In this document: positions 1 to 56,750 of the stretch, one piece after another | Layout of the letters: each line of letters opens with the position of its first letter | Position numbering within the stretch: the first letter of the stretch is position 1 | Virus record (IMG/VR): IMGVR_UViG_3300050821_007139 | Location: 27,469-91,468 of that record | DNA length: 64,000 bases | DNA from: a virus | Direction: 5' to 3' (one strand) | Translations under genes and position numbers: made by a program | The notes under the pieces: model-generated | Database searches by the model: none | What the model saw: only the letters and a program-made list of their open reading frames with translations | What the model was told of the DNA's origin: nothing

Positions 1-86
1 AGGTGCGATTCAAGTTCTACAAAACCATGAGATACTGATCTACTCTGGAAAAGATGGGTATTAATGAGCGAAAGTAAGCTATAGAT

Positions 87-1259
87 ATGCGAAGAGTCAG
101 CTTACTCTTACTTATTGTATCGCTTGCTACGACACTGATAGGGTTGTTGGTTTCGCTGCCAAATCGCGCAAATATGCTTTTTATGCCGTCAGGGTCAGGT
201 GGTGGGATTAGTCCAGATGGATCTTTTATTCAAGCTCCGGCAACTGGAGTCACGGGCGCTGCGGCGGGATCATTAAGGACCGTATATGGTACTTTCTCAT
301 TCGGGGATTTATACGCGCCTGTCCCGCATTATGGTGGCGGACAGCTTTACATCCCGTTGCTAAACGGCGTGCAGATGGAGCCGGGGCAGACGTTCGTATG
401 GGCGCAGTTCTTTTATGTCGGGTACGGCGGGAACGCTTTTGCAATGGTTACGGGTGATCAGCTACAAGCATCGTGGAGCAATAGTTCGTGGAACGGTGAT
501 AATGGTGGCACAGGGCCGGGACCATTTACCGGGTTTCCAGGCTTTGGCGGGGCTAATCAGATACCCGTTGGGACGCCGACCCCACCAACATTGCCGACAG
601 CTTGGGCCGGTCCTTACACACCATCAGCAGATGGTACAGCGATCTCAGGTGGAACAGGAACCTTAACCTCAGCACGGGGAGATGGTGGGATATGGACTTT
701 TGGTGCTGCTAGCGGCGGCGGATATATCATGCAGCGCCAGGGTATCACCGTATCGACGCCCAATTCAGGCTCGCTCACGCCTTATATCGTCACCGATATG
801 CAAATAAGCGCGTTTGGCTCGTTATTTTTTAAGACGGTAGATACAGTGTGGCACGTATGGAGCGGTCATCAGGCGAACGCCTCGACGGGGCCGCCCGGTA
901 CGGTGCCGATTCCAGTGGCGGTTAACTTCACGCCAAATGGATCGCTACCGCATGTGACGGTTGGCTCGGCGGATGGAACATTCGTCGCAGGCGTCGTGAC
1001 CACTATGAGTGATGGGGGCAGTTCTGTCGGCACGCTTTCTATCGGCCTCGACTTTAACACTGGTACGCGATTGTTGCGTAACTGGAATAGCGCCGATCCC
1101 TGTCCGTCTAGCTGTTCGGCAAATACGACGATAGTTGTGTGCGGCGTTGGCACTATAGGCACGGGGCTGGGATGCGTCGGCACTTATAATGGATCGAGTT
1201 CTCCGGTGACTGTAACGCAAAATGGAGCTTCGATCGTGTCAAAGATTAACGCGCAATGA
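87..1259 (+). CDS. Gly/Thr/Ser-rich fibre/spike-like protein with N-terminal signal/TM segment
   Basis: 390 aa ORF; MRR plus hydrophobic leader; G/T/S-rich beta-type composition with C-terminal Cys; late-region context. Confidence 0.55.
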   Translation: MRRVSLLLLIVSLATTLIGLLVSLPNRANMLFMPSGSGGGISPDGSFIQAPATGVTGAAAGSLRTVYGTFSFGDLYAPVPHYGGGQLYIPLLNGVQMEPGQTFVWAQFFYVGYGGNAFAMVTGDQLQASWSNSSWNGDNGGTGPGPFTGFPGFGGANQIPVGTPTPPTLPTAWAGPYTPSADGTAISGGTGTLTSARGDGGIWTFGAASGGGYIMQRQGITVSTPNSGSLTPYIVTDMQISAFGSLFFKTVDTVWHVWSGHQANASTGPPGTVPIPVAVNFTPNGSLPHVTVGSADGTFVAGVVTTMSDGGSSVGTLSIGLDFNTGTRLLRNWNSADPCPSSCSANTTIVVCGVGTIGTGLGCVGTYNGSSSPVTVTQNGASIVSKINAQ

Positions 1260-1409
1260 CCTAATGAGGATCTCCCTCGACTATCAGACGGGTAGCGAGC
1301 ATAAGCGCATGCGGCTTTGCCTGAGCTTCTATGGCAACGGCTGGCGCCGGAGCATCCCCGTCTGGTTTTGGACCAAATCGTTTTTCGTGTGAGGGAGTGA
1401 CCACACCTT

Positions 1410-1637
1410 ATGGGCTCGCTAAGTCTCGCTCATTGGCTGGTTGTTTTCGCGATCGTCACATTTCTATTCGGGGCTGGCAAAATCCCCCGACTTATGAGCG
1501 ACGCGGCGAAGGGTGTAAAAATTTGGAAGAAAGAAATTCACGCTCCGCTCGAAGATGTTGTTAGCAACGTGAACGAAACATCTGCAGAGGTAAGAGCACT
1601 TAATCCGTTACCCACAATTAAAAAGCTTGGATTATGA
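1410..1637 (+). CDS. tatA: Twin-arginine translocase TatA/TatE family subunit
   Basis: [41 protein letters not shown] matches the alphaproteobacterial TatA pattern (MGS..W..V...LFG.GKIP.LM.D.AKG.K.FK); GAGGGAG upstream. Confidence 0.9.
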
Positions 1638-1810
1638 TAATTCGCGCGTTTGTATGGATCTTAATATTACTGCTTGTAGCTCCGGCTTTCGCTAAGCCAA
1701 AACATGGTGGCGGCGGAGGCGGTGGGGCGCCGTCGAATTTTATACTGAATGACGCAGGAACTGCGATTCTCACCAATGACGCTGGCACACAGAGGTTAAC
1801 TCCGCCATGA
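1634..1810 (+). CDS. Small signal-peptide protein (58 aa, not in ORF track)
   Basis: Hand translation [58 protein letters not shown]; ATGA overlaps with both neighbours. Confidence 0.7.
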
Positions 1811-2760
1811 AACGATATCTTTGGTTTCTTTTAGTTTTTATATTTCCTGCATCGTCTATGGCCGATGTAACTTTTAGCTCGACTCGGGCGTATCAATCAG
1901 TATCGCTAACTGGCAGCGCATTTATTCCAAATGTTCTGCTTGGCTCAAACTTGACCCTAACTCTCGTTCACGGAACTTGTCCGTGTACATTGAATAATAT
2001 GACCAATATTTATCCTGGTCAGTTCGGTGTAGTTCATATTATAAATAGCTCTAGTGGTAGCGAGATTCTTACCCTATCAGGTAGTCAATATTCGTTGACT
2101 GTAACGCCTCCTTTTACACCAGATCCAGCATCTGAAAACGATTGGTTTTATACAGTCAACGCGGATAGCAAGGTATTATTTACATCAGCGGCATTACCAC
2201 CTTCGATCTCTAACACACAGGCGAATTTGCTCTCCGGCGCCGACGGAATGACAAGTGGCTGGACTGCACAAAACGCGACGCTTGCCACGGGCGCGACATG
2301 TACTAGCCCAATTGGCGGCACAAATACCTGTGCTTTATTGACTGAAGATACGACTACAAATACGCATTTCGCGTTTCAAAACACAACGCTACCGACATCC
2401 ACAAATACCGCGAGCGTGTTTGCCAAGATAAATTCCGGCACACGTTTTGTAGAGTTTCGAATAGCTGACAATTCTTTTGTCAATGTTGCTAGTGAGATAT
2501 TCGATCCGGTAACGTGCTCGGATACGATATCAGGTACTGGTGCTACCACGATTGGAACGGCGGTAATTATCGGTCATGGGACCATAGCGCGCTCAAACGG
2601 GTTTTGTGAGGGATGGATACAGGCGAATTTAGGCGGCGCTGTTCCGGTATTTGAGAATATCCAATTAGCAACACCGGCTGGTGATAATTATCTTGGAACG
2701 GGGCAGAGTAATTTATTGTGGCGTCCTGCAGTGAGGAATTGTGTATGCTCACCACCATGA
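1807..2760 (+). CDS. Fibre/head-spike-like protein with signal peptide
   Basis: Leader [19 protein letters not shown]; NLL...W...SPIGGTNTCALLTEDT motif typical of phage spike/fibre domains; paralogous to the C-terminal half of the next ORF. Confidence 0.6.
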   Translation: MKRYLWFLLVFIFPASSMADVTFSSTRAYQSVSLTGSAFIPNVLLGSNLTLTLVHGTCPCTLNNMTNIYPGQFGVVHIINSSSGSEILTLSGSQYSLTVTPPFTPDPASENDWFYTVNADSKVLFTSAALPPSISNTQANLLSGADGMTSGWTAQNATLATGATCTSPIGGTNTCALLTEDTTTNTHFAFQNTTLPTSTNTASVFAKINSGTRFVEFRIADNSFVNVASEIFDPVTCSDTISGTGATTIGTAVIIGHGTIARSNGFCEGWIQANLGGAVPVFENIQLATPAGDNYLGTGQSNLLWRPAVRNCVCSPP

Positions 2761-5012
2761 AACGAATTATTCTTACACTTGCTATTGCGATGGCGAGTGC
2801 ATTTCCGGCGCTTGCCCAAAATCAGGGAACTACTAGGCTTTTTCCTCCGATCGATGACTTGAGCCTGGTGAATCATCAGCCCTGGGCCTGCACTCAACTT
2901 ACTGCTGGCTGTGCGTTTAACGTAATCACGCCAAATCCAGGTATTGATCAGAGTGCCCAGATACAGGCTGCGCTTAATGGGTCGAAAACTTTGCCGGTAA
3001 TGTTAGTTGGCGGTCCATTCATTTCTTGCACACAGCTCCAGGTTCCCAACTATGGAACCTTTTTAAGCTATAATACCCTTGCTTATGATCCATTTTTTGG
3101 GACAGAAGCAAATACTTACCTGTCATGCAATAGTACATTTCATGGCACTAGTTTTGTTGCCTTTACTGGGTTACATGGCGGGTTGATTCGAGATATCGCT
3201 ATTGATGATAATTATACGCATCAAACAACTTTTGTGGGATCAATTTCGGGAACAACACTTTCTGTCGCTTCAATTACATCGAGCAATCTATCTCCAACGA
3301 TTACGGTCGGCCAAAGTTTGCAGGACGCGGCAGGTCATATTGCGATGACGACGCAGATAACCGCACTTGGTACTTGTGGAAATCCCGTTGTTCCGCCTTG
3401 TACTTTTTCTGTGTGGCCGTCACAGACAGTTGCAAGCGAAACTATGGGTGCTACAGTACACTGCTTTGAAAACATCCATAATGCTTCGTTCACCACTGCC
3501 TACGATATTCAAGGTGTCCGCTGTACGGGGGATGGATATCATGTTGTTGCCGATGGTAATCAGCCGGGTGGGCAGGGAATTGGTGGCGCTATCATCCGTC
3601 CATTAATTGGTGGCGCCCATACATATCTATCACTAAATGTTGGCGCTGGATTACGTGTCGATCAGGTAAATAACGGATTTGCCTCGGATCTTTCAGTGCA
3701 ATGCTGTCTCAATGCAGCAAGCAACTCGAATAACGGATTCTTCGGTCAATCAGTCGGGGATATTATACTGGCTGGGACAACTGGTCAATATGACAACCTT
3801 CGGACAGAGCAAGATGGAGCGTGTGGAGTTGTATTGCTTAATAGTGGCTACTTAACTCTTTCTAATTTACACGTTGACTCAAACTCATGCGTTGTTAAGG
3901 CGTTTAATTCATCGCTCAGTTTGATAGGTGGAGATGCGTTTAATAGGTTTACTGGGGTCACGGCGATTCAATTATTCAACTCCACTATGACTATGCAAGG
4001 ATTTTTTCTAGGCCCCGGATATTCATCTTCGATCCAAGCTGACGCCACGTCACATTTCTCCGGTTGGTTCGGCGGTACTAACCCTGGAATATCTTTTGCC
4101 GACCCCACAAGCGAACTTGTAGTGGGCCCAGGATTAATAAATTCAGTCGGCGGCAACCCGCCAGCTACCGTAACGCTTACCGGAGCCGCTTTTGCTGCAC
4201 CCGATTTATTACGCTCGGCCAACTCTATATTTGCCTTAAATCATGCGGGTTGTGCAGGTGGAACCGGCGGACATTGCTCTGTTCCGAACCCGACTTTTTT
4301 CACTAAGGGCACGAATGGCGTTTTTGAAATTCAGCAAAGTCTTACCGGCAATGATACAATTACTTGGGGTTCTGCATATGTTAATGCGCCAACACTCAGT
4401 ACGGGAGCTGGTGCGGTAGATTATGTACCGTGGTATGTAAATTCAGTCGGTCAGGTAGTGCTCGAAGCGCCTAATCAGAATCGGCTTGTTACAACTCCTG
4501 TTCCGGCCCAGCCTAACATTGTCACGCTACCATTGAGTTTTGCTGGTGGCGTATGGGGCGGTGGAACGCCTACGGCAGGTCAACTCGATCCAGAAGGCGG
4601 CACTACAGCAGTATTATTTACCGAAGATTCCAGCACCGGTTATCATGGCATATCAACTAATGTTACAGGTGCTGCTGGCACTTATACCGCCTCGTTCTTC
4701 TTCAAAGTTGGCGCTACCGGGGCGACGCGTTATGCAAACCTTCAGATCAATTCGACTACGACTAATGACCAGGTACAGTATCAGGTCAATCCCTGTAATA
4801 ATACAGGAGCGAGTGGCGGAGAAATAGTTGCAAGCGGGTGCATCATGTCACCAAATGGATATGGGCGGGTGTATTTGACTGTGGCAGCGCCGAGTGCATT
4901 ATCAAGCGTCATATTCTTTATGGGTGATTATAGTAATTATACCTATACGGGCGACGGCGTTTCTAATGGTTATTTCTGGGGGCCAATTATGCGTGCTGGG
5001 AATGCGCCATAA
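2757..5012 (+). CDS. Tailspike-like beta-helix protein with signal peptide and C-terminal spike domain
   Basis: Probable start ATG 2757 (ATGA overlap); MKRIILTLAIAMASAFPALAQ leader; DQSAQIQAALN beta-helix cap motif; C-terminal DPEGGTTAVLFTEDS...H domain. Confidence 0.65.
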   Translation: MKRIILTLAIAMASAFPALAQNQGTTRLFPPIDDLSLVNHQPWACTQLTAGCAFNVITPNPGIDQSAQIQAALNGSKTLPVMLVGGPFISCTQLQVPNYGTFLSYNTLAYDPFFGTEANTYLSCNSTFHGTSFVAFTGLHGGLIRDIAIDDNYTHQTTFVGSISGTTLSVASITSSNLSPTITVGQSLQDAAGHIAMTTQITALGTCGNPVVPPCTFSVWPSQTVASETMGATVHCFENIHNASFTTAYDIQGVRCTGDGYHVVADGNQPGGQGIGGAIIRPLIGGAHTYLSLNVGAGLRVDQVNNGFASDLSVQCCLNAASNSNNGFFGQSVGDIILAGTTGQYDNLRTEQDGACGVVLLNSGYLTLSNLHVDSNSCVVKAFNSSLSLIGGDAFNRFTGVTAIQLFNSTMTMQGFFLGPGYSSSIQADATSHFSGWFGGTNPGISFADPTSELVVGPGLINSVGGNPPATVTLTGAAFAAPDLLRSANSIFALNHAGCAGGTGGHCSVPNPTFFTKGTNGVFEIQQSLTGNDTITWGSAYVNAPTLSTGAGAVDYVPWYVNSVGQVVLEAPNQNRLVTTPVPAQPNIVTLPLSFAGGVWGGGTPTAGQLDPEGGTTAVLFTEDSSTGYHGISTNVTGAAGTYTASFFFKVGATGATRYANLQINSTTTNDQVQYQVNPCNNTGASGGEIVASGCIMSPNGYGRVYLTVAAPSALSSVIFFMGDYSNYTYTGDGVSNGYFWGPIMRAGNAP

Positions 5013-5325: not shown

Positions 5326-6123
5326 GTGGCTACAGATGATAACGGCATCTCCGAGTTAAGAAATGCGACTGATGAACTTAAACGCGTTATTGACTTAGTA
5401 CGGGACCGCTCCTCTATATGGACGCTCCCGCCTCAGTCGTCGGTGGGATTACCTATAGGTTCAGATAACTGGAATTTTACTACATTTGAGAAATATATTA
5501 ACCAGCGCTTTGGCGATCTTTCGTTACAGTTGCGCGAGCGCTATGAAGCGCAACAGACTGGCGTTATTGCTGCTTTGGCCGCTGCCGAGAAAGCGGTTAA
5601 CGCAGCGTTGATCGCCGCTGAGAAGGCAGTTGATAAAGCAGAAGGTGCCCAGCAGCTTCGTAACGAAGCGCAAAATGAGTTTCGTAAATCACTTTCCGAT
5701 CTTTCAGGATTGATGTGGACTAGTAAAGAAGGCTTGGCAGCGGTTGATTCAGTACGACGCGAGCTTAACGCCCTAGTAACAAATGCGGAAAATCGTATCG
5801 GCGTGATTGAAAAGTCTATTGCTGATAAGTGGAATTCTAAGGATGGCCAGTCAGCGGTAGATTCGGCGCGCCGTGAGAGGGTTGAAAGCTTTAGTCTTTT
5901 GGAAAAACGCACCGGAATATTAGAAACTGGTTACGCGAATCTTCAAGGGCGCATTTGGGCTGTGAGCGCATCATTTGCAATTATAGTTGTCATTGTTGAG
6001 ATTGCTATGCATTTCATACCTTCTTCTGTTTCTCCTACACCCATCCCTTCTATGTATAATAGTACGCCATCATCTCAGTGGCCGACGGCGGTTCCAACCG
6101 CACCCGGTGGTCCACAAAAATGA
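5326..6123 (+). CDS. Coiled-coil membrane protein adjacent to the endolysin
   Basis: AALAAAEKAV repeats, ..NEFR.. motif and a single C-terminal TM helix; upstream of the lysin. Confidence 0.55.
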   Translation: MATDDNGISELRNATDELKRVIDLVRDRSSIWTLPPQSSVGLPIGSDNWNFTTFEKYINQRFGDLSLQLRERYEAQQTGVIAALAAAEKAVNAALIAAEKAVDKAEGAQQLRNEAQNEFRKSLSDLSGLMWTSKEGLAAVDSVRRELNALVTNAENRIGVIEKSIADKWNSKDGQSAVDSARRERVESFSLLEKRTGILETGYANLQGRIWAVSASFAIIVVIVEIAMHFIPSSVSPTPIPSMYNSTPSSQWPTAVPTAPGGPQK

Positions 6124-6221
6124 ACGAAACCGATCCTATAGCAATAGCGCGATTCTTTTTAGAAATCTTTTTACTTATTGGCGCCATCGGAATTTTGCTT
6201 CTCCTTATAGATCATAGATAA
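6120..6221 (+). CDS. 33 aa single-TM peptide (holin/antiholin candidate; not in ORF track)
   Basis: MNETDPIAIARFFLEIFLLIGAIGILLLLIDHR; ATGA overlap with the previous gene; ends 4 nt before the lysin. Confidence 0.5.
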   Translation: MNETDPIAIARFFLEIFLLIGAIGILLLLIDHR

Positions 6222-6225
6222 AATT

Positions 6226-6867
6226 ATGCCCACACTTCCTTATCTTCCTAAAGTTACAACCGATACAGTAATCGATATAAGTCATTATGAAAAGATTAGT
6301 CAAGATTTTACACAAGTTGCAAAATCAGGCATCGTTGCAGTAATTATGAAGGCCACTCAAGGTGTTAACTTTGTCGATCCGACATTTCTTGAACGTGTAA
6401 GAGAGGCTAAAGCAGCCGGATTATTAGTCGGCGCTTACCATTTCTTAGATGGATCTAATCCGGCCGAACAAATAGCGCACTTTTTAACGGTTGCAGTAAG
6501 CGAAGGTGGAGTGGAATGGCTCGCGCTCGATTGGGAACCTTATCCAAATTCGCAAGCAACGGCAATGCAAGCGGCTACAGCAGCAGCGAGTATAGAAGCA
6601 GTACAAGATGTGTGGCCGACGTTATATACTATTCGTAGTATGCTTAATGGACCAAATAAGACACTCTTAAATTGTCCCCTATGGCTAGCTGAGTATGGCT
6701 CGAGACCAATACCGCCTCCAGGATTTACGGCTTGGAAGCTTTGGCAACATACGGATGGCCAAGTAGGAAGCAGTGTTAATCCCGTTCCTGGTATCGGGCC
6801 GTGCGATAGAAGTAAATTCGCTGGTACAGTAAGTGAGCTTAAAGCTTGGTGGGCGAACCCGGTTTAA
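6226..6867 (+). CDS. GH25 muramidase endolysin
   Basis: DISHY, KATQG, GAYHF, LDWE, WLAEY and LWQHT motifs of GH25. Confidence 0.92.
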   Translation: MPTLPYLPKVTTDTVIDISHYEKISQDFTQVAKSGIVAVIMKATQGVNFVDPTFLERVREAKAAGLLVGAYHFLDGSNPAEQIAHFLTVAVSEGGVEWLALDWEPYPNSQATAMQAATAAASIEAVQDVWPTLYTIRSMLNGPNKTLLNCPLWLAEYGSRPIPPPGFTAWKLWQHTDGQVGSSVNPVPGIGPCDRSKFAGTVSELKAWWANPV

Positions 6868-22231: not shown

Positions 22232-22517
22232 CGGAATATTCCTTTGGTGAATATGGACATGCTATCTCTTCGTCTAACTTCTTACCTTCAAACCAATCTT
22301 GATAAGTGATTGGTTTTCCTGATTTGTAATCGATATTTTCTTGTTTGCACCAAGTTACGAATCCAGCGCAGATTTGATTAGCGCTGTGACAGCTCCAATT
22401 AATGTTTTCATTATCTTTGAGAGACATTATCTCATATGGGTCTGGGACGCAACCATAGTTTATGGCGCGCTCGGAAGTTTCAGAGCCCATAAATGGGCAT
22501 GAGGAGCAAGCGGTCAT
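22224..22517 (-). CDS. Cys/His-rich hypothetical protein
   Basis: CxxCPF...GC.P...W.CH...CAG. Confidence 0.6.
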   Translation of the reverse strand: MTACSSCPFMGSETSERAINYGCVPDPYEIMSLKDNENINWSCHSANQICAGFVTWCKQENIDYKSGKPITYQDWFEGKKLDEEIACPYSPKEYSDE

Positions 22518-24079
22518 GCGACTAGCTCCAAGTTGTTATTTACTCTGGTTCTCTTATCGCCACTTGTGGTCCATTTGATTAATCCGTCGGGATGATCCTG
22601 ATTTGCATTGCCCCAACTCCAGCCTACTTTAGCTTCACTAGGAACAGTAAATCTCCGGCCTCGATAAGATAACGGAACATCTAAATGTTTTTGCATTTCG
22701 CTTATTATTTTAGCTTCATTAGTGTCAAATTCAAGTCTTTGCCCATAAACTGCGTCGTGTAATTGCGCTATAAGTTCTACGGGATGATTGCTATTTGGCC
22801 CCATGTATTTCCACATGCGCCATAAACCAAGATTAAGGCGCCTTGCTGTCGGAGCCTGGGACATGAAGGCAATGCCTTCTTTAATTGTATCATTTGAGTC
22901 TGCGCGGCCAAAAAAATCACGCCTTCCTCCGAAAGCATCTATTAAATAATGCTCGCGTTGAAGTTGTCCGGCTACCCAAGTAAAGAATTGATTTAAGCAG
23001 GGATAAGTAGCAAACATTCTTTCTTGGGCAGATTTAATGAGCTTATTTGGTACTCGAATTTGCCGGGCAATTTCTAAATAGCCGCCGAATTTTTCCGTTC
23101 CATGACGGACGCGTTTGGCAACTTCGCGATAGCTGTGTTGGCGGTAATATAATTGATCTGCAATTTTGCGATCATGTTTCAGATCCCCATTCCAATCTAG
23201 ATCGTTTTCCCAAATCTCGCGCGCTAAGATAGTATGAGGGTCGCCGGATTCGGCTGAGTCTAAGTAGCTTGAGTCGCCAAATAATACCCAACATAGCCAT
23301 CCGGTTTCTCTTGTTTCGGCTTGTTCTAAATCAGCGCCAAATAGCTTCTTATCTTTATTTGCTATGAACATATATCTTAATTCTTCTTCGATATTTTGAA
23401 AATTTCTCCCGGTTCCGGTTATTGATTTTGATGAACTAAAGCGCGATGTTGTTGTCATAGCGGGATTGAAACTGGTACGCATTCGCCAATCGGAATCAAT
23501 TTCGGTTTCTAAAACTTCAAGTTGTCCTTCATTGTCGCGATAAGATAGAATCGCAGCTATTATTGGCCTTGCTATAAAATAACCTTCGAGTTTTTCTAAG
23601 ATTTCCCTTTCCATTGGTTTTGTTAATTTGCCTTCTTTTTTTCTTATTATTGGTGGGATTTGCAGTATATCGTAGAAGAAAGTTGCTAATTGTGAGGTTG
23701 AGTTTGGGTTTAAGGTTTTTGGTTTCGGGTGGTCATTGGTGGCTTTGGTCGGCGAGCGTAAGTCACAAATGGCGCTGACGTAGCAATCAATTATATCGCT
23801 TAATCGTTCTAAGCGTTTTCTTAACTTAGCTATCCCATCTTCTCTTGCCCAAGGGTCAATTTTCCAGCCGCGTAAGTTCATCTCAATTGCGGGTGCCTGT
23901 AAAGCGCGCTCAAAGTCGTAGATTAGCTTTGGGCCTTGAAGCTCGATAGGAGAATTGTGACTTGGAAGCAGGGTTTTTAATTCGTTTAAAACCTCACAAG
24001 TCAACATGCTATCCATGGCATTATAGACTTGGATCGATCCGCAATCAGTATCAAGCTCGTGTGCGGCTATTAATGGCAT
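22514..24079 (-). CDS. polA: Family A DNA polymerase, polymerase subunit (starts with ExoIII motif)
   Basis: YNAMD (ExoIII), NPNS..QL, T.R.SS, NFQNI, ADLEQAE (motif A), R...K...HG (motif B), QLHDA (motif C). Confidence 0.9.
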   Translation of the reverse strand: MPLIAAHELDTDCGSIQVYNAMDSMLTCEVLNELKTLLPSHNSPIELQGPKLIYDFERALQAPAIEMNLRGWKIDPWAREDGIAKLRKRLERLSDIIDCYVSAICDLRSPTKATNDHPKPKTLNPNSTSQLATFFYDILQIPPIIRKKEGKLTKPMEREILEKLEGYFIARPIIAAILSYRDNEGQLEVLETEIDSDWRMRTSFNPAMTTTSRFSSSKSITGTGRNFQNIEEELRYMFIANKDKKLFGADLEQAETRETGWLCWVLFGDSSYLDSAESGDPHTILAREIWENDLDWNGDLKHDRKIADQLYYRQHSYREVAKRVRHGTEKFGGYLEIARQIRVPNKLIKSAQERMFATYPCLNQFFTWVAGQLQREHYLIDAFGGRRDFFGRADSNDTIKEGIAFMSQAPTARRLNLGLWRMWKYMGPNSNHPVELIAQLHDAVYGQRLEFDTNEAKIISEMQKHLDVPLSYRGRRFTVPSEAKVGWSWGNANQDHPDGLIKWTTSGDKRTRVNNNLELVA

Positions 24080-24156
24080 TATTTATGTTCTTCAGTAAGA
24101 AAAATTATTATAACTATTATGCATACAATGATAAATAGTGACCATGCTGGGTTCAT

Positions 24157-24753
24157 TTAAATTTCTATATCAGAGCCAGATTCGTTGTTATAAGAATAAT
24201 CAGCCCAATCGAACCAATCAAAGATGCGTTTTTGTTTAGCGCGCTCGTCCCAAATAAACCATGCGTAACAAGTATTGCTTGGCGCTTCAGGGCCGGTCCA
24301 ATTGTATCGGTGCATCATAGGCAATCGGCGTGAAGATATCCAAAGCCGTGCTGGTGGATGTTTGCGAAAGAAGGGGAGTCTATTACAGCTTTCTAAGAAA
24401 TTGGTTCTTAATAAGAACGCTACATAAGGAACTTCACTGATTGCTTTCTTGGCGAATTCGACTGCGAGCTTATAGGGTGGATTTGTTATTATACCCTCCC
24501 ATGACATTTTAACTGCTAGGAAAAAATCTACCATTGAAGACCCATATCCATAATCCATAATATCTGAACTAAAAACATCAAAATTATTATCTTTTAAAAC
24601 TTTACTTATTGCTCCGTCTCCACAAGCGGGTTCCCAAATGTAATGAGGAATAAATTCTTTTTCTATATTAATTAGTGATATTGTAGCCTCTGGTGGCGTG
24701 AAATATGCATCTAAACCTCGGTCTTCAAAATTATGCGAGCTTTGAATTAGCAT
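24157..24753 (-). CDS. SAM-dependent DNA amino-methyltransferase
   Basis: Y.TP, EPACGDG (motif I), ITNPPY (motif IV). Confidence 0.85.
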   Translation of the reverse strand: MLIQSSHNFEDRGLDAYFTPPEATISLINIEKEFIPHYIWEPACGDGAISKVLKDNNFDVFSSDIMDYGYGSSMVDFFLAVKMSWEGIITNPPYKLAVEFAKKAISEVPYVAFLLRTNFLESCNRLPFFRKHPPARLWISSRRLPMMHRYNWTGPEAPSNTCYAWFIWDERAKQKRIFDWFDWADYSYNNESGSDIEI

Positions 24754-24765
24754 AACTTTATCTTT

Positions 24766-25092
24766 TTAACGTATATTTCGTTCTGTAAACGGGATGATTA
24801 AGTTCTTTTCAAATAATCTTTCTTTTGCTTTTAACATCCCTGGCGACCATCCTAAGTCAATATAAAATGCTATTAATTCGGCACTTGACCACCAAGCATA
24901 TCCAGATTCTATCCCCATTTGCCTTTGTTCCGGTTTATTATCATCTAAAAATAATGGATATAATAGATGTGATCCAAATGGAGCCTCTCCGCGTTTTAAG
25001 CTATCTAATGCAGCTTCATAAGCATAAGCTTTATTTAAGGCTATATTGCCAGCAAAAGGAGATTCTATAATAACTCTACGACGTAATTGCAT
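24766..25092 (-). CDS. DUF4406/nucleoside deoxyribosyltransferase-like fold protein
   Basis: IESPFAG, RGEAPF.SHLLY, G.S.GM. Confidence 0.6.
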   Translation of the reverse strand: MQLRRRVIIESPFAGNIALNKAYAYEAALDSLKRGEAPFGSHLLYPLFLDDNKPEQRQMGIESGYAWWSSAELIAFYIDLGWSPGMLKAKERLFEKNLIIPFTERNIR

Positions 25093-25094
25093 TT

Positions 25095-26240
25095 TTATTC
25101 CTCGCGTTTTAAACTCTCGCCATGAGCAAGCATAGACTTCCAGGCAATTTCGTTGCTGTATATCGAAGCCAAGTAACCCAGCCCGCGCCGCTTTTCTGGC
25201 AACGTGGCGTGTTGTAAAATCATTGGATCATCGGCGCAATTATTAACTATGATACCTATTCGTAGAAAATGACTTATATCGAAGATGCCATTTTGAAAGG
25301 CTTTTGGAACTGGAGAGCGCAATGCGCCTATCAGTAATTCCCATGCTTGAATTTCCTCTTCTAAACTTTTCCAATAATTAAGCTCGGGATCTTCTCGGGT
25401 CATGAAAGGAATTACAAGCGATTCGTAAGGACTTCTGGCAAAACTTACCATAGATATAAGTTCGGATAAGATCCGCCGCATTGGAACTGGCATATTTTTG
25501 ATTTCAGACCGGGAGAACAGGGCATATCCGGTTTCGATGTCGATTGTATAAGATTCAGCAGGCTGAGCTAGCCAAGTTTTGATTTCACTTAGGGTTATCT
25601 TTTCTTTCGTTTTTGGATCTTCACAAGTTATCCAGCGTTTGATTCGTCTTATTTCGGGAAAGTTTGATTCGTAGGCGACCTTTTGTAGATCTGAAATAAT
25701 ATCTGTTCTTAGTTGTTCTTGGCGCAGTGCTGCAGGATGGAATGTTGGAAAGACCTTTTTATTAAATCTCAAGCTTAGCTTAGGCGTGCCTCGAATTGAG
25801 CTTATATTAGTTATGCCTAGTAACGCCCAACAGGCATAGTTTCCTAAAGCGACGATTACATTGGGATTATGATTCTCTATTTCTTTCCATAAGTTCTCGA
25901 TATGATAGCGATATTCGGATTTGACATAAAAGATGCGGTTATTGATCTTGATTGGGGGTAAACTTGTGTCTATATTTCCTTGTGTAGCGAAGAATAGTTC
26001 GGTCTTATCGCCTTCCGGGTGTTCGTTGAAGACATTTGTTACTGCAATTTGGTGCTCGTCTTTTAGCCATTTCCAATGAGAGATCATGTCTTCAAGGCTT
26101 GGATAAGGTACGCGCAGTTCAGGCGCAAGATTGGAGCTTCCTAGCATCTTTGCTAATTCTCGGCCTGACCAGCCGACTAATGGATGACCGACTAGGGCTT
26201 CATTTTTTCCTAAACTTTCGGCTACAAGAACTACTTTCAT
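25095..26240 (-). CDS. UDG-like domain fused to a partial 3'-5' exonuclease (N-terminal half of split polymerase)
   Basis: AESLG..E...G.PLVG.SG, ALGNYA and TFHPA (family 4 UDG-like); DIET (ExoI), QN..FD (ExoII); no ExoIII. Confidence 0.8.
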   Translation of the reverse strand: MKVVLVAESLGKNEALVGHPLVGWSGRELAKMLGSSNLAPELRVPYPSLEDMISHWKWLKDEHQIAVTNVFNEHPEGDKTELFFATQGNIDTSLPPIKINNRIFYVKSEYRYHIENLWKEIENHNPNVIVALGNYACWALLGITNISSIRGTPKLSLRFNKKVFPTFHPAALRQEQLRTDIISDLQKVAYESNFPEIRRIKRWITCEDPKTKEKITLSEIKTWLAQPAESYTIDIETGYALFSRSEIKNMPVPMRRILSELISMVSFARSPYESLVIPFMTREDPELNYWKSLEEEIQAWELLIGALRSPVPKAFQNGIFDISHFLRIGIIVNNCADDPMILQHATLPEKRRGLGYLASIYSNEIAWKSMLAHGESLKREE

Positions 26241-27622
26241 CTTACAGCTTCACTAGCTTTTCTTTTAGATCTTTCTTTTAGAGTTAATTCGTTAGCTTTG
26301 GCTGCGTATTCTTCATTAATTTCAATTCCCAGTACACTTCGGGCGCCTAGGCTTTCGGCAGCTCGAATTGCACTTCCGCTGCCGGAACATATATCTAAAA
26401 AATCTGTAGCGTTATCGACTAGCATTGATAGAAAATGTTTCAGCATTGATTCTGATTTTTGATTAGGAACGATTGGAGATGTAACTGCAGGGGCCGCGTA
26501 ACAGTCTGTCATTTTTTTAAATAAGGCTCGGTCGCCCCGGGTAACTAATAGACAACTTTCATAGCTTGGCTTAGGATGCAGTCCACGCACACCTGGAGCG
26601 CCGTTATTTGTGTCTGATTTGAACCAAATTAAAGGATAATCGGTAAGAAAGAATTGAGAATTGATAAATTTATTTATGATTGGCAGGGAATCTCCTTCAC
26701 GATCTAACCAAAACATTATATGACAACTGTAACTAGCAAAGTTGTCTATATTATCAATTAATGAATTTGGCAAAGCATAATACGAATTTTCATCATGTGT
26801 AAAATCACAATGAATCAGGTTAAATTTATCTCCGGAATAACTCTCGCTCCAAGATATAAAATCGGTAGTTATAATTGGAGGAGTAGCTTTATCCAAATTC
26901 GGCTTTGGTTTTACATCTGTAATAATAGTTTCAGTTTTTGAAATTGGCATTAATTGTTCATGATTTGTGTCAGTATAGATATCATGTGTATCTGAATAAC
27001 TAACTAATGTTGGAAGGACAGAATCGGCTAGTTTTGTTACTTGATCCTTATTTAAGGGGGCGCGTAGTAGTTCTTCGACTAAATCTGCGGCTTTTTTTTC
27101 CTCCTTTCGTTGTAAGATGCCTAGGGCTTGCGTAAAGTTATCAGCGTTAGATAATAGTGGTGAGTCTAATTCTTTAAAGACATTTAATATGTTTCCGATT
27201 TGTTGCGGGGTGTAATTTAAAGCTTCAGCTGTTTTGGAGTTTGTCCAAGAGATATCTTTGCTTGTTTTATTTTTATGAAAATCTCCTATGGCGCTGACAT
27301 GATCCTGCCAAGATAAGTTTTCGCGCTTGATATTTTCTTCAAGTTCGATAATTTGAAGCTCGTCTGGATCTAAGGTATCGTAATAACGTATGGGAACTTG
27401 GCTTAAGTTTAGTTCTAATGCACAAAGTAATCGTCTGTGTCCGGCGACTAAGGTTAGTTTGTCTAATCGCTCTAGCTTTTCTCTATGAACAATTATTGGG
27501 TTCCAGATTCCTCTGGATCTTATGGAATCTATTAAACCTTCTGTTGTCGCATTCTTTCGTTGGCGCTCGCCTATATTTATCTCGCCTGGATCAACAAAGT
27601 CGATTTCATTTGTTATTGGCAT
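26237..27622 (-). CDS. ParB-like domain fused to a degenerate methyltransferase domain
   Basis: RQR, SI...G...PI, LVAGHRR, ELEENIKR; C-terminal DICSGSGS; DPPY position reads DFTH. Confidence 0.75.
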   Translation of the reverse strand: MPITNEIDFVDPGEINIGERQRKNATTEGLIDSIRSRGIWNPIIVHREKLERLDKLTLVAGHRRLLCALELNLSQVPIRYYDTLDPDELQIIELEENIKRENLSWQDHVSAIGDFHKNKTSKDISWTNSKTAEALNYTPQQIGNILNVFKELDSPLLSNADNFTQALGILQRKEEKKAADLVEELLRAPLNKDQVTKLADSVLPTLVSYSDTHDIYTDTNHEQLMPISKTETIITDVKPKPNLDKATPPIITTDFISWSESYSGDKFNLIHCDFTHDENSYYALPNSLIDNIDNFASYSCHIMFWLDREGDSLPIINKFINSQFFLTDYPLIWFKSDTNNGAPGVRGLHPKPSYESCLLVTRGDRALFKKMTDCYAAPAVTSPIVPNQKSESMLKHFLSMLVDNATDFLDICSGSGSAIRAAESLGARSVLGIEINEEYAAKANELTLKERSKRKASEAVR

Positions 27623-51085: not shown

Positions 51086-51388
51086 TTGTCCACACTTTAT
51101 ATAGCTGAATTTAATAAACTCTTAGTTGATGCTGATGCGCAATCAGTCCTTGCGCCGAATTATCCAGCCTTGCGTGAACAAGTTGTAGCTATAGGCGGCG
51201 CTTCAACTCAATCAGTTATGATGGGCTCTGAGACTAGATTTGTCCAATTATCTACTGATGTTGTATGTTCCTTTGTAGTCGGAGTAAATCCTACAGCTAC
51301 TACTACTAACTCTCGTATGGCTGCTAATGAGACTCGATTTATTGGTATAGTTCCTGGTCTAAAAATTGCTGTAATTAGTAATTCATAG
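51086..51388 (+). CDS. Putative virion structural protein
   Basis: S.QS...TRFV...D..C....G.NPTA...E...I.PG.KIAVI pattern of small phage structural proteins. Confidence 0.6.
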   Translation: MSTLYIAEFNKLLVDADAQSVLAPNYPALREQVVAIGGASTQSVMMGSETRFVQLSTDVVCSFVVGVNPTATTTNSRMAANETRFIGIVPGLKIAVISNS

Positions 51389-51399
51389 AGATCCTAGCT

Positions 51400-52032
51400 A
51401 TGATGGGCTCACCACCACCACCAATTTCATCTAATGTCCAAGCTTTATCTGTATTGACTGAAATTGTTGATCTATTACGCAATGGGCCGAAAGACATTAA
51501 AGATCAAATTAAATCTCTTCAAGACTTACATAAAAGTGTTTCTGAAGAAGTGATAGCGCTAGATAAAGTTAAAATAGAACATTTAGCTTTAGCTAATACT
51601 AATACTAAAGCTAGCGAATCTTTATCTTCTCGTGAAGTAGAGATTAATAATAAAATCTCTTTGAATAACGAAAGAGAAGTTAAATTAAATAAATTTAATG
51701 AAGACTTACATACTCGTCAGCAGAAATTGAATAATGATACTAAAGAATTTGAAGCTTTAAAGAAGACCACTGCATCTGATCTTTCACAAAAACTTAAAGC
51801 TGCTGAACAAGAGATTGCTACTAAACTTCAAGTTTGTGATAAAGAAATTAAAGCCAAGCAAACCAAAGCTGATCAAGAAATAAAAACTAAACAAGAAGCT
51901 TTTAATGCCTCTTTAGAGACTCAGAGAGCCGAACTTGCTCAACAAGCAGCCAGAATAAGCTCTTCCGAATCTCAACTTCGCTCCCGAATGGAACAACTCC
52001 GTGCTGTATTGCCGAATTTCAATGGTGCGTAA
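51400..52032 (+). CDS. Coiled-coil protein
   Basis: Heptad K/E/Q/L-rich. Confidence 0.65.
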   Translation: MMGSPPPPISSNVQALSVLTEIVDLLRNGPKDIKDQIKSLQDLHKSVSEEVIALDKVKIEHLALANTNTKASESLSSREVEINNKISLNNEREVKLNKFNEDLHTRQQKLNNDTKEFEALKKTTASDLSQKLKAAEQEIATKLQVCDKEIKAKQTKADQEIKTKQEAFNASLETQRAELAQQAARISSSESQLRSRMEQLRAVLPNFNGA

Positions 52033-52035
52033 TAG

Positions 52036-52413
52036 GTGGCCAGTGAAAAAATCAGCGCAATGCCAGATGCGGGCGCGCTTACTGGTGCCGAACTTGTTCC
52101 CGTTGTTAGATTTGGTTCTCCAAATTTAAATCTTAGCACGACTGTAGCTGATATTGCCAATTCAGGGTCTTCTCTTGGTATAATTGAATACATCAATAAT
52201 ACTTCTGGTCTCCCTATAACATTCACTCTTCCATCAAGTCATGTTACAACTACAATCAAAGATGACGGATTTAATGCAACTTTATTCCATATTACTGTTG
52301 TAGACCCGGTGGGAAGCTTAATTGATAATAGCTCTAGCTTTGTTATTAACCAATCTGGGGCTGCTTTTACTTTTGTGTGGCAAAATGCGCGAAGCAAATG
52401 GAACGTATTTTAG
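52036..52413 (+). CDS. Fibre-type structural protein
   Basis: KISAMP.A..LTG.ELVP N-terminus plus TLP...IKD.G.NA...ITV...ID domain. Confidence 0.6.
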   Translation: MASEKISAMPDAGALTGAELVPVVRFGSPNLNLSTTVADIANSGSSLGIIEYINNTSGLPITFTLPSSHVTTTIKDDGFNATLFHITVVDPVGSLIDNSSSFVINQSGAAFTFVWQNARSKWNVF

Positions 52414-52691
52414 GTTTAAGTTTAGCTTTCAGTTTAATTATTGTCCACTTTTCTTATGCTGACGGGCCACAAGCTTGTAATGAGAAAGAAGATCCTGTTG
52501 TATGTATGCTTAAAGTCGAGCGTAATAATTCGCAAGATGAATTAGCTATTGCCCAAGGTACTATTATACGAACCTTGGATAAGGAGAAAGATCGTGCAGA
52601 GTATTGGAAGAAATGGGTGGAAGGGGATATTGAAAAGTCTGTCTGGTGGAATAGTTTCGTTCACGGTTTGCCTACTATATTCCGTAAGTAG
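52398..52691 (+). CDS. Signal-peptide protein
   Basis: MERILGLSLAFSLIIVHFSYA leader; Cys pair. Confidence 0.5.
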   Translation: MERILGLSLAFSLIIVHFSYADGPQACNEKEDPVVCMLKVERNNSQDELAIAQGTIIRTLDKEKDRAEYWKKWVEGDIEKSVWWNSFVHGLPTIFRK

Positions 52692-53322
52692 TTTTGCAGC
52701 TTATACAGGATCACCGCCGCTACTTGTAGCTAATGGTGGAACGGGTGCGCAAACATTTACTGCACATGGCGTGCTGTTAGGTGAAGGCACTAATCCGCTT
52801 GTTCCAACTGCAGTTGGCACGAACGGCCAAATGTTTCTTGGTGCTACTGCCGCTGATCCTGGGTGGCAGACAATGGGTGGCGATGCGACTCTAGGAACTA
52901 CAGGTACTTTGACTTTAGCTACCGTCAATGGTGCGGGCGGTAGTTGTACGCTTTGCAGTATTACCTCGAATGCTAAGGGATTAATTACTAGCTTTTCTAG
53001 TGGTGCGGCTACTATTCCAACACTTGCGACTGCCTCTGGTGCTTCGCCAATTACTATCACTGCAACTAATTTGCTTACTACGATTGTTTCTATGGGAACT
53101 CCTGCGGCATCAACAATCAATCTTCCTACTGCTGTCCAAACGGCCGGGTTCCGGCTGTGTGTTAAGGATGGAACTACGAATTTTGCTACAAATAATGCTA
53201 CGGTTAAAAGCCCAACTGCCGGCACAATTGATGGAGTTGCTGGTGCAACTGGTATAGTAATGAACCAAGCCCATCAAGAATTATGCTTCATCAGCGATGC
53301 TAGCAATTGGTTTATAGAATAA
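52630..53322 (+). CDS. Tail-fibre-like protein with signal peptide
   Basis: Probable TTG start 52630 after AAGGGG (MKSLSGGIVSFTVCLLYSVSSFA); VANGGTGA repeat; GDATL; NAKGLIT; C-terminal VKDG...IDG domain. Confidence 0.65.
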   Translation: MKSLSGGIVSFTVCLLYSVSSFAAYTGSPPLLVANGGTGAQTFTAHGVLLGEGTNPLVPTAVGTNGQMFLGATAADPGWQTMGGDATLGTTGTLTLATVNGAGGSCTLCSITSNAKGLITSFSSGAATIPTLATASGASPITITATNLLTTIVSMGTPAASTINLPTAVQTAGFRLCVKDGTTNFATNNATVKSPTAGTIDGVAGATGIVMNQAHQELCFISDASNWFIE

Positions 53323-53349
53323 TTTTCGTAATTCTTTAATTGCTACAAG

Positions 53350-53784
53350 ATGTCGCTAAATTTACGATGGGGACTTATTATTGGCGCTATTGTTTGTACT
53401 TTGTCATTATCAGTTCGTGCGGCTTATTTAGGAACTCCAACTTATATTATACCATGCGCCAATTGTTTATCTGGGACAGCAGATGTTACAACTACAACAT
53501 CAACAAGTCTTATTGCGGCGCCGGGAGCTAGTTTATTTATATATGTTACCCATATTAGTTGTTTTAACAGTAGTGTGACTAATACAACAGTAGTTCTACA
53601 AAATGGTAGTGCCGGGACAACTATTTGGAAAGGAATTGCATATGCGGGAAGTGGTTTTGTTGCTGACTTTTCCACTCCGCTTGGTGGATCGGTTAATATG
53701 ACTGCTAATACAGCACTCTTTTTTGCAGCAGGGACTGGCGTTACAACGTTAACCTGTAGTGCTGTTGGATATAAATCGTCTTAA
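53350..53784 (+). CDS. Signal-peptide structural-like protein
   Basis: Leader ending VRA; IAAPGA...YVT.I...N...ANTAL....GY. Confidence 0.6.
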   Translation: MSLNLRWGLIIGAIVCTLSLSVRAAYLGTPTYIIPCANCLSGTADVTTTTSTSLIAAPGASLFIYVTHISCFNSSVTNTTVVLQNGSAGTTIWKGIAYAGSGFVADFSTPLGGSVNMTANTALFFAAGTGVTTLTCSAVGYKSS

Positions 53785-53799
53785 TATGGAGATCAGGTT

Positions 53800-54156
53800 A
53801 TGAAAGGTTCAGTTACAGTATTTAGTGCTGCGACTTTGCTTATGATTGGTATTGCTGCGGCACAGGGTGCTTCAGTAAGTGGTAATCTATCAATTACAGT
53901 TCAACCTGGTGCTTTAGCACTAGTATTAAATCCTGCTACAGTTACGCTGACTTGTAATACAGCGGCCGGGACTCTAGTCAGCCAAGCGTCAACTACTGGT
54001 GGCGATGGAAACACGGTGACTTTTTCTATGACGGGGAACGTCACGGATTTTGCGATAAATTCTTCAACAGGTGCTATTACAGTAGTCGCCGGAGGTATTC
54101 ACCCCGCAGATTGTAATATGTCTTTTACAAATGTCGTTACTGCAACGCAACCATAA
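53800..54156 (+). CDS. Cadherin/Ig-like domain protein with signal peptide
   Basis: Leader ending AAA; TFS....DFAINSSTGAITV. Confidence 0.65.
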   Translation: MKGSVTVFSAATLLMIGIAAAQGASVSGNLSITVQPGALALVLNPATVTLTCNTAAGTLVSQASTTGGDGNTVTFSMTGNVTDFAINSSTGAITVVAGGIHPADCNMSFTNVVTATQP

Positions 54157-54166
54157 GATATTAATT

Positions 54167-55300
54167 ATGTATAGGCGCTTACATTTTTATGTAATCCCTC
54201 TGCTTGTATCTTTATGCTTTAATACACCTGCACATGCTGTAACGTATGTATTCTTTGCAACCGGAACAAATGCCAACTGGTGCCCTGGCGGCGCTACTAC
54301 TTGTTTTGGTGTTGGCGATACGATAACTGCGGAGTGTGTTGGGGGCGGCGGCGGAGGCGATGTCAATAGTAGCAGCACCAGTGGTTCAGGTGGCGGTGGC
54401 GCGGCCTACGCCCATACGGGAGCAACACCAGCAACAGTTGCCCAACGCACAGTTACATCTGGCGATATTGCTAATGGGATTCGATATACGGTCGGCCCTG
54501 GCGGCACGGGTGGTTCAACTGGAAGCGCAGGAACGGCAAGCACAGTTCTGGCTACAACTAGCACGTCTTTTGATACGACGATTTGCAATGCGGGCGGTGG
54601 CGGCGCAGGGTCAGTAACAGGGGCTGCTGGAACAGTTGGAACCTGCACGGGCTGCTCGGGATTTGCTGGCGGGGCCGCTGGTGGAGATGCTACAGGTTTT
54701 GGCGCGTCCGGAGGAGGCGGATCAGCTGGACCGCATGGAGTAGGTAAAAACGGTGGTATTGGTAATGCCGGAAGTGCTGTTGCCGGTTCCGGCGGGGGTG
54801 GAGGCGGCGCCGATGATACTTCCGCTACAGTCGGGAGTGCCGGTGCTAATGTTTCATCAAATATCGCTACGGGTGGGGCTGGAGGCGCTAATTCTGCTGG
54901 CTCAGGTGGCGGCGCTGGAGGTAACACAACAGGTGCGGGCGGCGCTGGTGGTTCAGGAACCAACGGTGGCGGCGGTGGCGGCGGTGGCGTAGGTTCCAGC
55001 ACAGGTATTAAAGGCGCTGGTGGTTCAGGCTCGGCTAGTAATTTGGATTGGGATGCTACACATGGAGTCAGCGGTGGCGGTGGAGGCGGGGCTGGAAATG
55101 CAGCTTCAGCTGTAACGGGTGGGGCTGGTGGAACGCCACCATGTTGTGGTGGTGGCGGAGGCGGGGGCGGTTCGGGAAATTTATCATCGATTGCTAATGG
55201 CGGGGCTGGCGGGGCCGGTGCTGCTGGCCTCATTATCTTCACCCGGACTTTAGCAGCAGCTGGTGTTCATCAACTTCTAATGCTCCATGTAGGAAACTAA
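54167..55300 (+). CDS. Glycine-rich fibre-like protein with signal peptide
   Basis: Probable start MYRRLHF...PAHA; ECVGGGGGG, YTVG.GG and GAAGLII glycine-rich domain motifs. Confidence 0.7.
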   Translation: MYRRLHFYVIPLLVSLCFNTPAHAVTYVFFATGTNANWCPGGATTCFGVGDTITAECVGGGGGGDVNSSSTSGSGGGGAAYAHTGATPATVAQRTVTSGDIANGIRYTVGPGGTGGSTGSAGTASTVLATTSTSFDTTICNAGGGGAGSVTGAAGTVGTCTGCSGFAGGAAGGDATGFGASGGGGSAGPHGVGKNGGIGNAGSAVAGSGGGGGGADDTSATVGSAGANVSSNIATGGAGGANSAGSGGGAGGNTTGAGGAGGSGTNGGGGGGGGVGSSTGIKGAGGSGSASNLDWDATHGVSGGGGGGAGNAASAVTGGAGGTPPCCGGGGGGGGSGNLSSIANGGAGGAGAAGLIIFTRTLAAAGVHQLLMLHVGN

Positions 55301-55305
55301 TTTCT

Positions 55306-56439: not shown

Positions 56440-56499
56440 GCGAGTAGTGCCATTGGTGTTGGTAGTGCCACCTGCAATGCATATGCCGGGTCTTGTTAA

Positions 56500-56676
56500 T
56501 TGAGTGAAGATGTAATTTTACTAGAGCTTAGTGGCGATCCAATTTTACTGGAAGATTCTAGTGGAGATATTTTACTTGAGGTTCAACCTAGTCCTGGTCC
56601 TGGCGGTGAAATTATTTGGCCCACAGATTTCATAGCTAATATGGCTCGTTTTATGGGTAGAATGGGGTCAAGTTAA
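56500..56676 (+). CDS. Small protein with three ILLE repeats (not in ORF track)
   Basis: Hand translation MSEDVILLELSGDPILLEDSSGDILLEVQP... Confidence 0.55.
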   Translation: MSEDVILLELSGDPILLEDSSGDILLEVQPSPGPGGEIIWPTDFIANMARFMGRMGSS

Positions 56677-56750
56677 GTGAGAGTTAAATTGGCTCAAGTC
56701 TTGATTTGTGTTTATATTCTATTTCTTAGACGTTACTTGGGGCTTTAATT

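Follow-up and report, generated by a model that had tools for sequence, protein, structure and literature searches.

A virus-borne TatA-family gene in a block of predicted exported proteins of a soil phage

What could a phage gain from a TatA gene of its own when its genome encodes neither TatB nor TatC? TatA makes the membrane passable for folded proteins by a means that is still debated, and it is the Tat subunit required in many copies per transport event. The gene that raises this question lies in a stretch of 64,000 nucleotides (the window) comprising bases 27469-91468 of the 91,468-bp IMG/VR record IMGVR_UViG_3300050821_007139. The window start corresponds to genome position 27469, and positions below are those of the window unless given as genome positions. 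The record has a G+C content of 43.9%, 97-bp direct terminal repeats and a completeness rating of 100%. Its genes include those for a large terminase, a portal, a GH25 endolysin, replication, the capsid and the tail, and from this gene set we conclude that it is the genome of a tailed phage. DNA of this phage is present in soil metagenome runs from two studies, where the region is letter-identical; in one soil run, contigs are identical over 1143-1875, a segment that includes the entire TatA gene.

Identity and sequence features of the phage TatA

The gene and its presumed ribosome-binding signal are as follows.

1391..1397, + strand: Shine-Dalgarno-like GAGGGAG, read from the sequence, 12 nt 5′ of the TatA ATG
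1410..1637, + strand: phage TatA-family gene, 75 aa, assigned by PF02416, the TatA/E NCBIfam models and the conserved core

The original prediction took the ORF at 1410-1637 for a TatA, and the search with PF02416 bore this out: the TatA_B_E model matched residues 4-44 with 27.4 bits vs. a GA of 21, and a six-frame search of the genome agreed. All 15 NCBIfam rows listed for the protein are TatA/E or Sec-independent translocase models, none of them above its cut-off; the curated thresholds were not reached by NF001940 (63.6 bits vs. 83) or TIGR01411 (48.8 vs. 53.9). The profile built from the relatives of the protein matches the solved TatA structures 2mn7, 2lzr and 9e07. The lack of tatB and tatC, originally stated for the window, extends to the entire 91,468-bp genome, in which PF02416 has a single match (TatA itself) and the TatC family PF00902 has none at E <= 1. 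A 77-aa ORF in another frame (1331-1564) was rejected, as it is devoid of the supporting signals that the TatA ORF has.

An exhaustive phmmer search of 1.84 billion representatives yielded 546 relatives of the phage protein, 151 of which were aligned. The features that define TatA are a polar residue, a short helix ending in Phe-Gly and an amphipathic helix (PMC9527704). In the phage protein, the N-terminal MGSLSLA precedes the polar His8; residues W9-F20 form a membrane helix of 12 residues, G21 is the hinge, and an amphipathic helix (about 24-44) is followed by a C-tail. It thus has the 7-10 N-terminal residues, the polar residue and the helix of about 12 residues ending in Phe and followed by Gly that are expected of a TatA. 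His8, Phe20 and Gly21 are common to 150, 148 and 148 of the 151 aligned homologues, respectively, and the core retained in the alignment includes His8, Trp9, the 12-residue helix, Phe20-Gly21-x-Gly23, Met29, Asp31, Ala33 and Gly35. In alignment A3, 13 of the 14 columns conserved in at least 90% of sequences are kept, the sole exception being F39, which is W here. The hydrophobic moment of residues 24-44 reaches a maximum of 0.57, compared to 0.44 for E. coli TatA computed with the same script.

The protein differs from its 151 nearest homologues by L17T, G30S, F39W and G42E, and of the changed positions 30, 39 and 42 are nearly invariant. Phe39, found in 144 of the 151 homologues, is a residue that we take to be important from the mutagenesis of E. 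coli TatA. Furthermore, the contiguous acidic patch is missing: residues 45-47 are APL where the homologues have D/E, and acidic residues occur just at 48-49. Work on E. coli treats this patch as a contributor to TatA activity (PMC9527704).

A typical relative is 50-65% identical across the first 43-48 residues, and the identity of cellular homologues does not go beyond about 65% over 44 residues. A small clade of three proteins (P0002, P0003 and P0154; 57-64% identical), all from NCBI contigs of 2.6 kb or less, has in common with the phage protein a conserved C-terminal tail, NP[LS]P[TV][IL]KKLG, which the other aligned relatives do not have, as well as Thr17 and Trp39. Among 401 sampled Pseudomonadota genomes, 233 gave a match; the best listed were 44-60% identical, and none among the matches listed had the C-tail. 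One genome in this sample, G414, is unpublished and underlies none of our claims. The GC content of the gene (46.5%) and its GC3 (44.7%) are within one standard deviation of the phage gene averages, so the gene is not a fresh host fragment. The original prediction had reckoned with a missing PF02416 match, or with a sporadic and decaying piece of host DNA; PF02416 matches, and the gene is intact, adapted in composition and joined by a small clade of relatives sharing its tail. As judged from these sequence features, the ORF is confirmed as a real, intact, virus-borne TatA-family gene in a block of apparently exported phage proteins.

The surrounding block and its twin-arginine leaders

The + strand block of exported proteins that contains TatA starts well upstream of the window and is located between the virion genes and the GH25 endolysin gene, and its members are fibre- or spike-like in appearance. 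In this respect the designation "late fibre operon", given to it originally, is apt as to position and look, whereas no member is a proven virion protein. Signal-like N-termini were found on about 20 of the ~160 ORFs of the phage. A scan for promoters and terminators gave counts not above those in shuffled sequence, and the folding of the 150-nt spacer 5′ of TatA did not surpass that of its shuffles (z = -1.1). The features of the block are listed below, where RR denotes a twin-arginine leader and a slash marks the predicted end of a leader.

Genome 22429-23022, + strand: 197-aa RR-leader protein, begins ITRRRLIASALAAPAIIRPASA, leader TRRRLIASALAAPAIIRPASA; ends 5.9 kb 5′ of TatA
Genome 23031-27314, + strand: 1427-aa RR-leader protein, leader MRRRDLLKISPGLLVPKIALA; ends 1.6 kb 5′ of TatA
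Genome 27332-27532 (3′ end at window 1..64), + strand: Phd/YefM-like ORF, 66 aa, PF02604 30.3 bits vs. a GA of 29.8
87..1259, + strand: 390-aa protein directly 5′ of TatA; leader MRRVSLLLL, a long, very hydrophobic stretch, then NRA/NMLFMPSGSGGG
1634..1810, + strand: 58-aa signal-peptide protein, its start overlapping the TatA stop (ATGA)
1807..2760, + strand: 317-aa signal-peptide protein, ATGA-coupled to the 58-aa ORF
2757..5012, + strand: 751-aa signal-peptide protein, leader MKRIILTLAIAMASAFPALA/QN, ATGA-coupled
6078..6221, + strand: small one-helix membrane ORF directly 5′ of the endolysin gene, a presumed conventional holin candidate, no PHROG match
6226..6867, + strand: GH25 endolysin without a signal peptide; PF01183 112.6 bits, phrog_291 endolysin E 8e-32

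The translational coupling of TatA to three signal-peptide genes, claimed from the outset, is borne out by ATGA stop/start overlaps at 1634-1637 (TatA and the 58-aa ORF), 1807-1810 (the 58-aa and 317-aa ORFs) and 2757-2760 (the 317-aa ORF and the 751-aa form of a 764-aa ORF). The leaders of the three coupled proteins are of the Sec type with AxA-like ends. The leader of the 390-aa protein has a twin arginine, yet by its sequence its hydrophobicity appears more Sec-like or anchor-like. The 317-aa protein and the C-terminal part of the 751-aa protein are paralogous (blastp, 28% identity over 300 aa, E 7e-8). For the 751-aa protein, Atlas feature matches to PF12708/PF13229 clusters (score 0.86) serve as a lead only, towards a possible spike or depolymerase with a pectate-lyase-like beta-helix, and its AF2 single-sequence model (pLDDT 38) gave no usable fold. 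Searches of Pfam and PHROGs gave no match for the 390-, 58-, 317-, 751-, 1032-, 197- and 1427-aa proteins.

The TatA gene is 4.6 kb upstream of the GH25 endolysin gene, with five ORFs between them. Just 5′ of the small membrane ORF and the endolysin gene, window 5326-6123 encodes a coiled-coil protein of 265 aa, which has its only membrane helix at the C-terminus and no family match and may be part of the lysis system. The Phd/YefM-type antitoxin-like ORF sits inside the exported-protein block, between the genes for the 1427-aa RR protein and the 390-aa protein, with no toxin partner visible. Between the virion genes and the signal-peptide block (L166:1004-3048, genome 16003-18050) a gene for an Asp/Glu racemase (PF01177, E 5e-13) is accompanied by an orphan of 469 aa, a pair suggestive of a chemistry of the cell wall or of D-amino acids. 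A second cluster of signal-peptide proteins (144, 118, 377 and 377 aa) precedes the terminase gene at window 51086-57416. Since the corresponding interval is 7.5 kb here vs. 2.8 kb in the nearest relative, G001, this second cluster is variable cargo.

The original prediction saw no canonical twin-arginine leader. This is correct within the window, but two ORFs of the same + strand block, located upstream and outside the window, begin with TRRRLI and RRRDLLK leaders. Read from the ORFs, the motifs are TRRRLI..RPASA in the 197-aa protein and MRRRDLLK..IALA in the 1427-aa protein, and both leaders show an S/T-R-R-x-F-L-K-like motif, a moderately hydrophobic h-region and an AxA site. The h-regions are short, with an uncharged stretch of 12 residues in the former and of 8 plus KIALA in the latter, and in a rule-based leader scan the 197-aa leader passed and the 1427-aa leader failed the rule of 12 uncharged residues. 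The start of the 1427-aa ORF is 8 nt past the previous stop, and its leader must therefore be translated and is no spacer. The Tat-signal HMMs TIGR01409 and PF10518 matched neither leader at E <= 10 within the first 40 residues; as the HMMER filters drop most weak matches, this null result is weak negative evidence.

Residues 233-403 of the 1427-aa protein have a paralogue in the 197-aa protein (36% identity, E 7e-27). Conservation between paralogues starts exactly at the predicted AxA site, as seen in ALA/RPKHGGGG of the 1427-aa protein vs. AFA/KPKHGGGG of the 58-aa protein, so that the mature N-terminus of the latter matches the residues that follow the leader of the former. A second set of tags comprises ASA/NLLMMPAAGGG (197 aa), NRA/NMLFMPSGSGGG (NMLFMP..GGG; 390 aa) and VHA/NLFMTVTSGGGG (NLFMTV..GGGG; 377 aa, window 55306-56439). 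This onset of conservation at the AxA sites speaks for a cleavage of the leaders and for the relevance of the N-termini thus created. The mature N-terminal tags, PKHGGGG and N-L/M-L/F-M..GGG, are common to Tat-type and Sec-type precursors (window 87-1259, 1634-1810 and 55306-56439; L166:7430-12312).

Three homologues of the 197-aa protein (P0163, P0165 and P0166; 41-46% identical) are leaderless, and their first residues are the tag motif; one 197-aa homologue carries PF13313/DUF4082. Because the homologues elsewhere lack a leader, the leader is an addition made in this phage. An AlphaFold model of the 197-aa protein, built on a small alignment, is a beta-sandwich with a mean pLDDT of 79, about 90 in the core and most blocks, and disordered residues 1-33. 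Its best PDB matches are baseplate chains of phage phi812 (E 1e-4), a mycobacteriophage central fibre, and CBM6 and PHR beta-sandwiches. By the model and these matches, the presumed Tat cargo is a beta-sandwich that resembles a binding module, as known from phage baseplates. In the Atlas, no usable match was found for the 1427-aa protein.

TatA genes in other phages

The nearest phage kin by TerL (76% identity), G001 and G002, are both fragments that end before the TatA region. No match to the phage TatA was found by tblastn among 50,697 cultured or deposited phage records, either at E 1e-3 or at E 10, or among the PHROG families, and megablast of the first 8.3 kb against the phage records was likewise without a match. 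Scans of IMG/VR with TatA alone, with an alignment of the five-member clade, or with the 1427-, 751- and 370-aa neighbours found nothing, and scans of genome and metagenome contigs returned ordinary TatAs only. A broad alignment recovered six more viral records in IMG/VR, all with a TatA above the Pfam cut-off and without TatC, three of them 98-100% complete. These phages, with a G+C content ranging from 39% to 73%, are not close relatives of the phage studied here: apart from TatA, a few genes are common with it in L175/G030 and L171/G026 (28-45% identity), and none in the other four.

In L175/G030 (60.9 kb; L175:6001-6712), the stop of a 70-aa TatA overlaps the start of a 168-aa ORF with a textbook RR leader, SRRGIIGALGALFAAPAIVRA. 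The genes that follow this pair are 35-38% identical to replication-module genes of our phage. In L170/G025, a 45-aa TatA gene stands among neck and tail genes, directly 5′ of a neck-terminator gene (PF23961) and a DUF3383 gene, and a mini-ORF starting MRRRDFLTGSAALAAFA is located 1.9 kb upstream of it. In the other four phages, the gene 3′ of TatA encodes a winged-helix protein, a QueD-like protein, an aldolase or an unknown product. In one of the contigs (L173:8626-9171, minus strand), an Rz-like ORF with an N-terminal membrane helix and a coiled coil contains in another frame a lipoprotein ORF whose leader is VSRRFAFAIALSSLAMSAC; the two form an embedded spanin pair of the classic kind at a distance of 2.5 kb from the TatA of that phage.

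A rule-based scan of whole genomes, partly judged by eye, revealed a convincing RR leader in four of the six TatA phages vs. one of seven TatA-less phages, a suggestive enrichment that is not significant at these small counts. The TatA-less phage G012 (58 kb) encodes a 1130-aa ORF (23799-27299, minus strand; L203) with a textbook NRRDFI leader, NRRDFIHAGCTAAAVSLAP, and RR cargo therefore does not need a phage TatA. As a control, 382 kb around the terminase genes of 80 TatA-less phages contained no convincing N-terminal RR leader.

Possible roles of the phage TatA and comparison with known systems

The presence of the phage's own TatA together with twin-arginine-tagged proteins nearby suggests that the phage probably tops up the host exporter for fibre-like proteins. 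We put at about 0.5 the probability that it supplies additional TatA to host TatBC for the export of its own folded proteins. According to this explanation, the phage protein would be a working TatA-type subunit, made late along with the exported fibre- and spike-like proteins. Because the phage is devoid of TatB and TatC, its TatA would have to enter the inner membrane of the host, where host TatBC would recruit it, presumably after TatBC has bound a twin-arginine leader. The added protomers would then raise the capacity of the host translocase, and this capacity would be used for phage cargo, namely the 197-aa DUF4082-like beta-sandwich and the 1427-aa protein with the same domain. Pairing with host TatBC, Tat-specific cleaved leaders and an export limited by the TatA supply are what we infer here.

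The idea of a boosted or retuned host Tat export, one of those offered originally, gained from the RR proteins in the block and from the adjacency of TatA and an RR leader in L175/G030, while the holin-like option gained nothing. Several observations weigh against the extra-TatA explanation: the null result with the Tat HMMs, the short h-regions, the Sec-type leaders of the coupled genes, and the F39W, G42E and G30S changes together with the loss of the acidic patch. In E. coli, co-overexpression of tatABC relieves Tat saturation; we know of no case in which an excess of TatA alone does so.

An alternative that is plausible in principle (PMC9527704) but improbable here is that the protein serves as a holin-like helper in lysis timing, with late TatA clusters thinning and weakening the inner membrane so as to dissipate the proton motive force or aid the endolysin in crossing. 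The short TatA helix and the amphipathic helix behind it have a membrane-weakening effect, and TpeE/BhlA-type holins have the same layout (PMC9527704), which the phage protein retains with an amphipathic moment exceeding that of E. coli TatA (0.57 vs. 0.44); the gene is in a late + strand block upstream of a signal-less endolysin, and the lost acidic patch and F39W could mark a move away from cyclic transport. However, TatA does not adjoin the endolysin gene, a place taken by the separate small membrane ORF at 6078-6221, nor does it lie in a lysis cassette, and it has no PHROG match of any sort, hence none to a lysis or holin family. In other phages, the neighbours of TatA are winged-helix regulator, QueD/QueE-like, neck/tail or RR-cargo genes and not lysis cassettes. 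Moreover, His8, which serves TatC binding (PMC9527704), is kept.

We regard as distinctly improbable that the variant TatA interferes with the host system by competing at TatBC, thereby shutting down host export or biasing the translocase to phage cargo. Such a role would fit the clade-specific F39W, G42E and G30S changes and the missing acidic patch, at positions nearly invariant in the 151 homologues, and the conserved extra C-terminal motif could bind a phage partner. The change of F to W is nevertheless conservative, the C-tail of E. coli TatA is dispensable (PMC9527704), and a pure poison would leave the co-located cargo with RR leaders unexplained. The phage TatA may also have diverged towards a new role.

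It is very unlikely that the gene is a captured host tatA, a merely tolerated passenger of little or no function beside coincidental RR leaders: although the nearest kin, G001 and G002, end before the TatA region, just six further IMG/VR contigs have this type of TatA and none of the 50,697 phage records matched, the reading frame is unbroken, is preceded by a good ribosome-binding site and overlaps the next gene in ATGA, its composition is phage-adapted, its cellular homologues do not exceed about 65% over 44 residues, a clade has its conserved tail, and TatA again adjoins RR cargo in the unrelated phage L175/G030.

Beyond the supply of extra TatA to host TatBC, we consider a wider possibility, which is doubtful, that much of the fibre- and spike-like set of this phage crosses the inner membrane, the folded proteins through Tat and some others through Sec, that the phage carries its own TatA for that purpose and that the exported proteins have their place of action beyond the cytoplasm. 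Their task might be to strip or mask the infected cell's receptor or envelope polysaccharide; more radically, they might mature in the periplasm and join particles only at lysis. If this export does occur, the PKHGGGG and N-L/M-L/F-M..GGG tags would be docking peptides exposed by signal-peptidase cleavage.

A virus-borne TatA beside its cargo is a compact natural experiment on which features a TatA needs to plug into a foreign TatBC. It would show whether very large substrates, the 1427-aa protein among them, are limited in their export by the TatA supply, and would show tailed phages sending folded proteins out before lysis. If confirmed, it would add Tat to the host machines that phages reinforce and would raise the question of what a lytic soil phage gains from exporting fibre-like proteins of a carbohydrate-binding type. 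In addition, the short phage TatAs (45-88 aa) and the leaders could help in tuning Tat-based recombinant secretion.

Just as E. coli TatE and B. subtilis TatAc, the phage protein is a small stand-alone TatA-family member with a helix-hinge-amphipathic-helix layout that needs a TatC encoded elsewhere. Unlike them, it is viral and encoded amid genes with export leaders, and it is set apart by F39W, by a conserved tail and by the lack of a contiguous acidic patch. The phoD-tatAd-tatCd genes of Bacillus subtilis resemble the phage locus in that the genes of a Tat component and of its presumed cargo are neighbours and are expressed together; in contrast, the phage has TatA alone without TatC, its cargo is fibre-like or a beta-sandwich, and the coupled genes have Sec-type leaders. 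With the TpeE/BhlA-type holins the phage protein has in common a short membrane helix followed by an amphipathic helix and the same proposed principle of membrane weakening (PMC9527704). These holins have no sequence kinship to TatA (PMC9527704), whereas the phage protein truly belongs to PF02416, retains the polar residue for TatC binding and is not encoded beside the endolysin.

A literature search found no paper on a phage-encoded TatA and no published case of a Tat-pathway top-up, and in a 2026 review of Tat evolution phages appear solely for SlyD/phiX174 and T4 RI, with no phage TatA. The phage protein differs from the known members of the TatA/TatE family in its viral origin, the occurrence of TatA only, the tail motif and the changes at position 39 and in the acidic patch. 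If the phage does supply extra TatA to host TatBC, its gene would be like the auxiliary genes by which phages top up host machines, a single limiting subunit of a host complex being carried by the virus.
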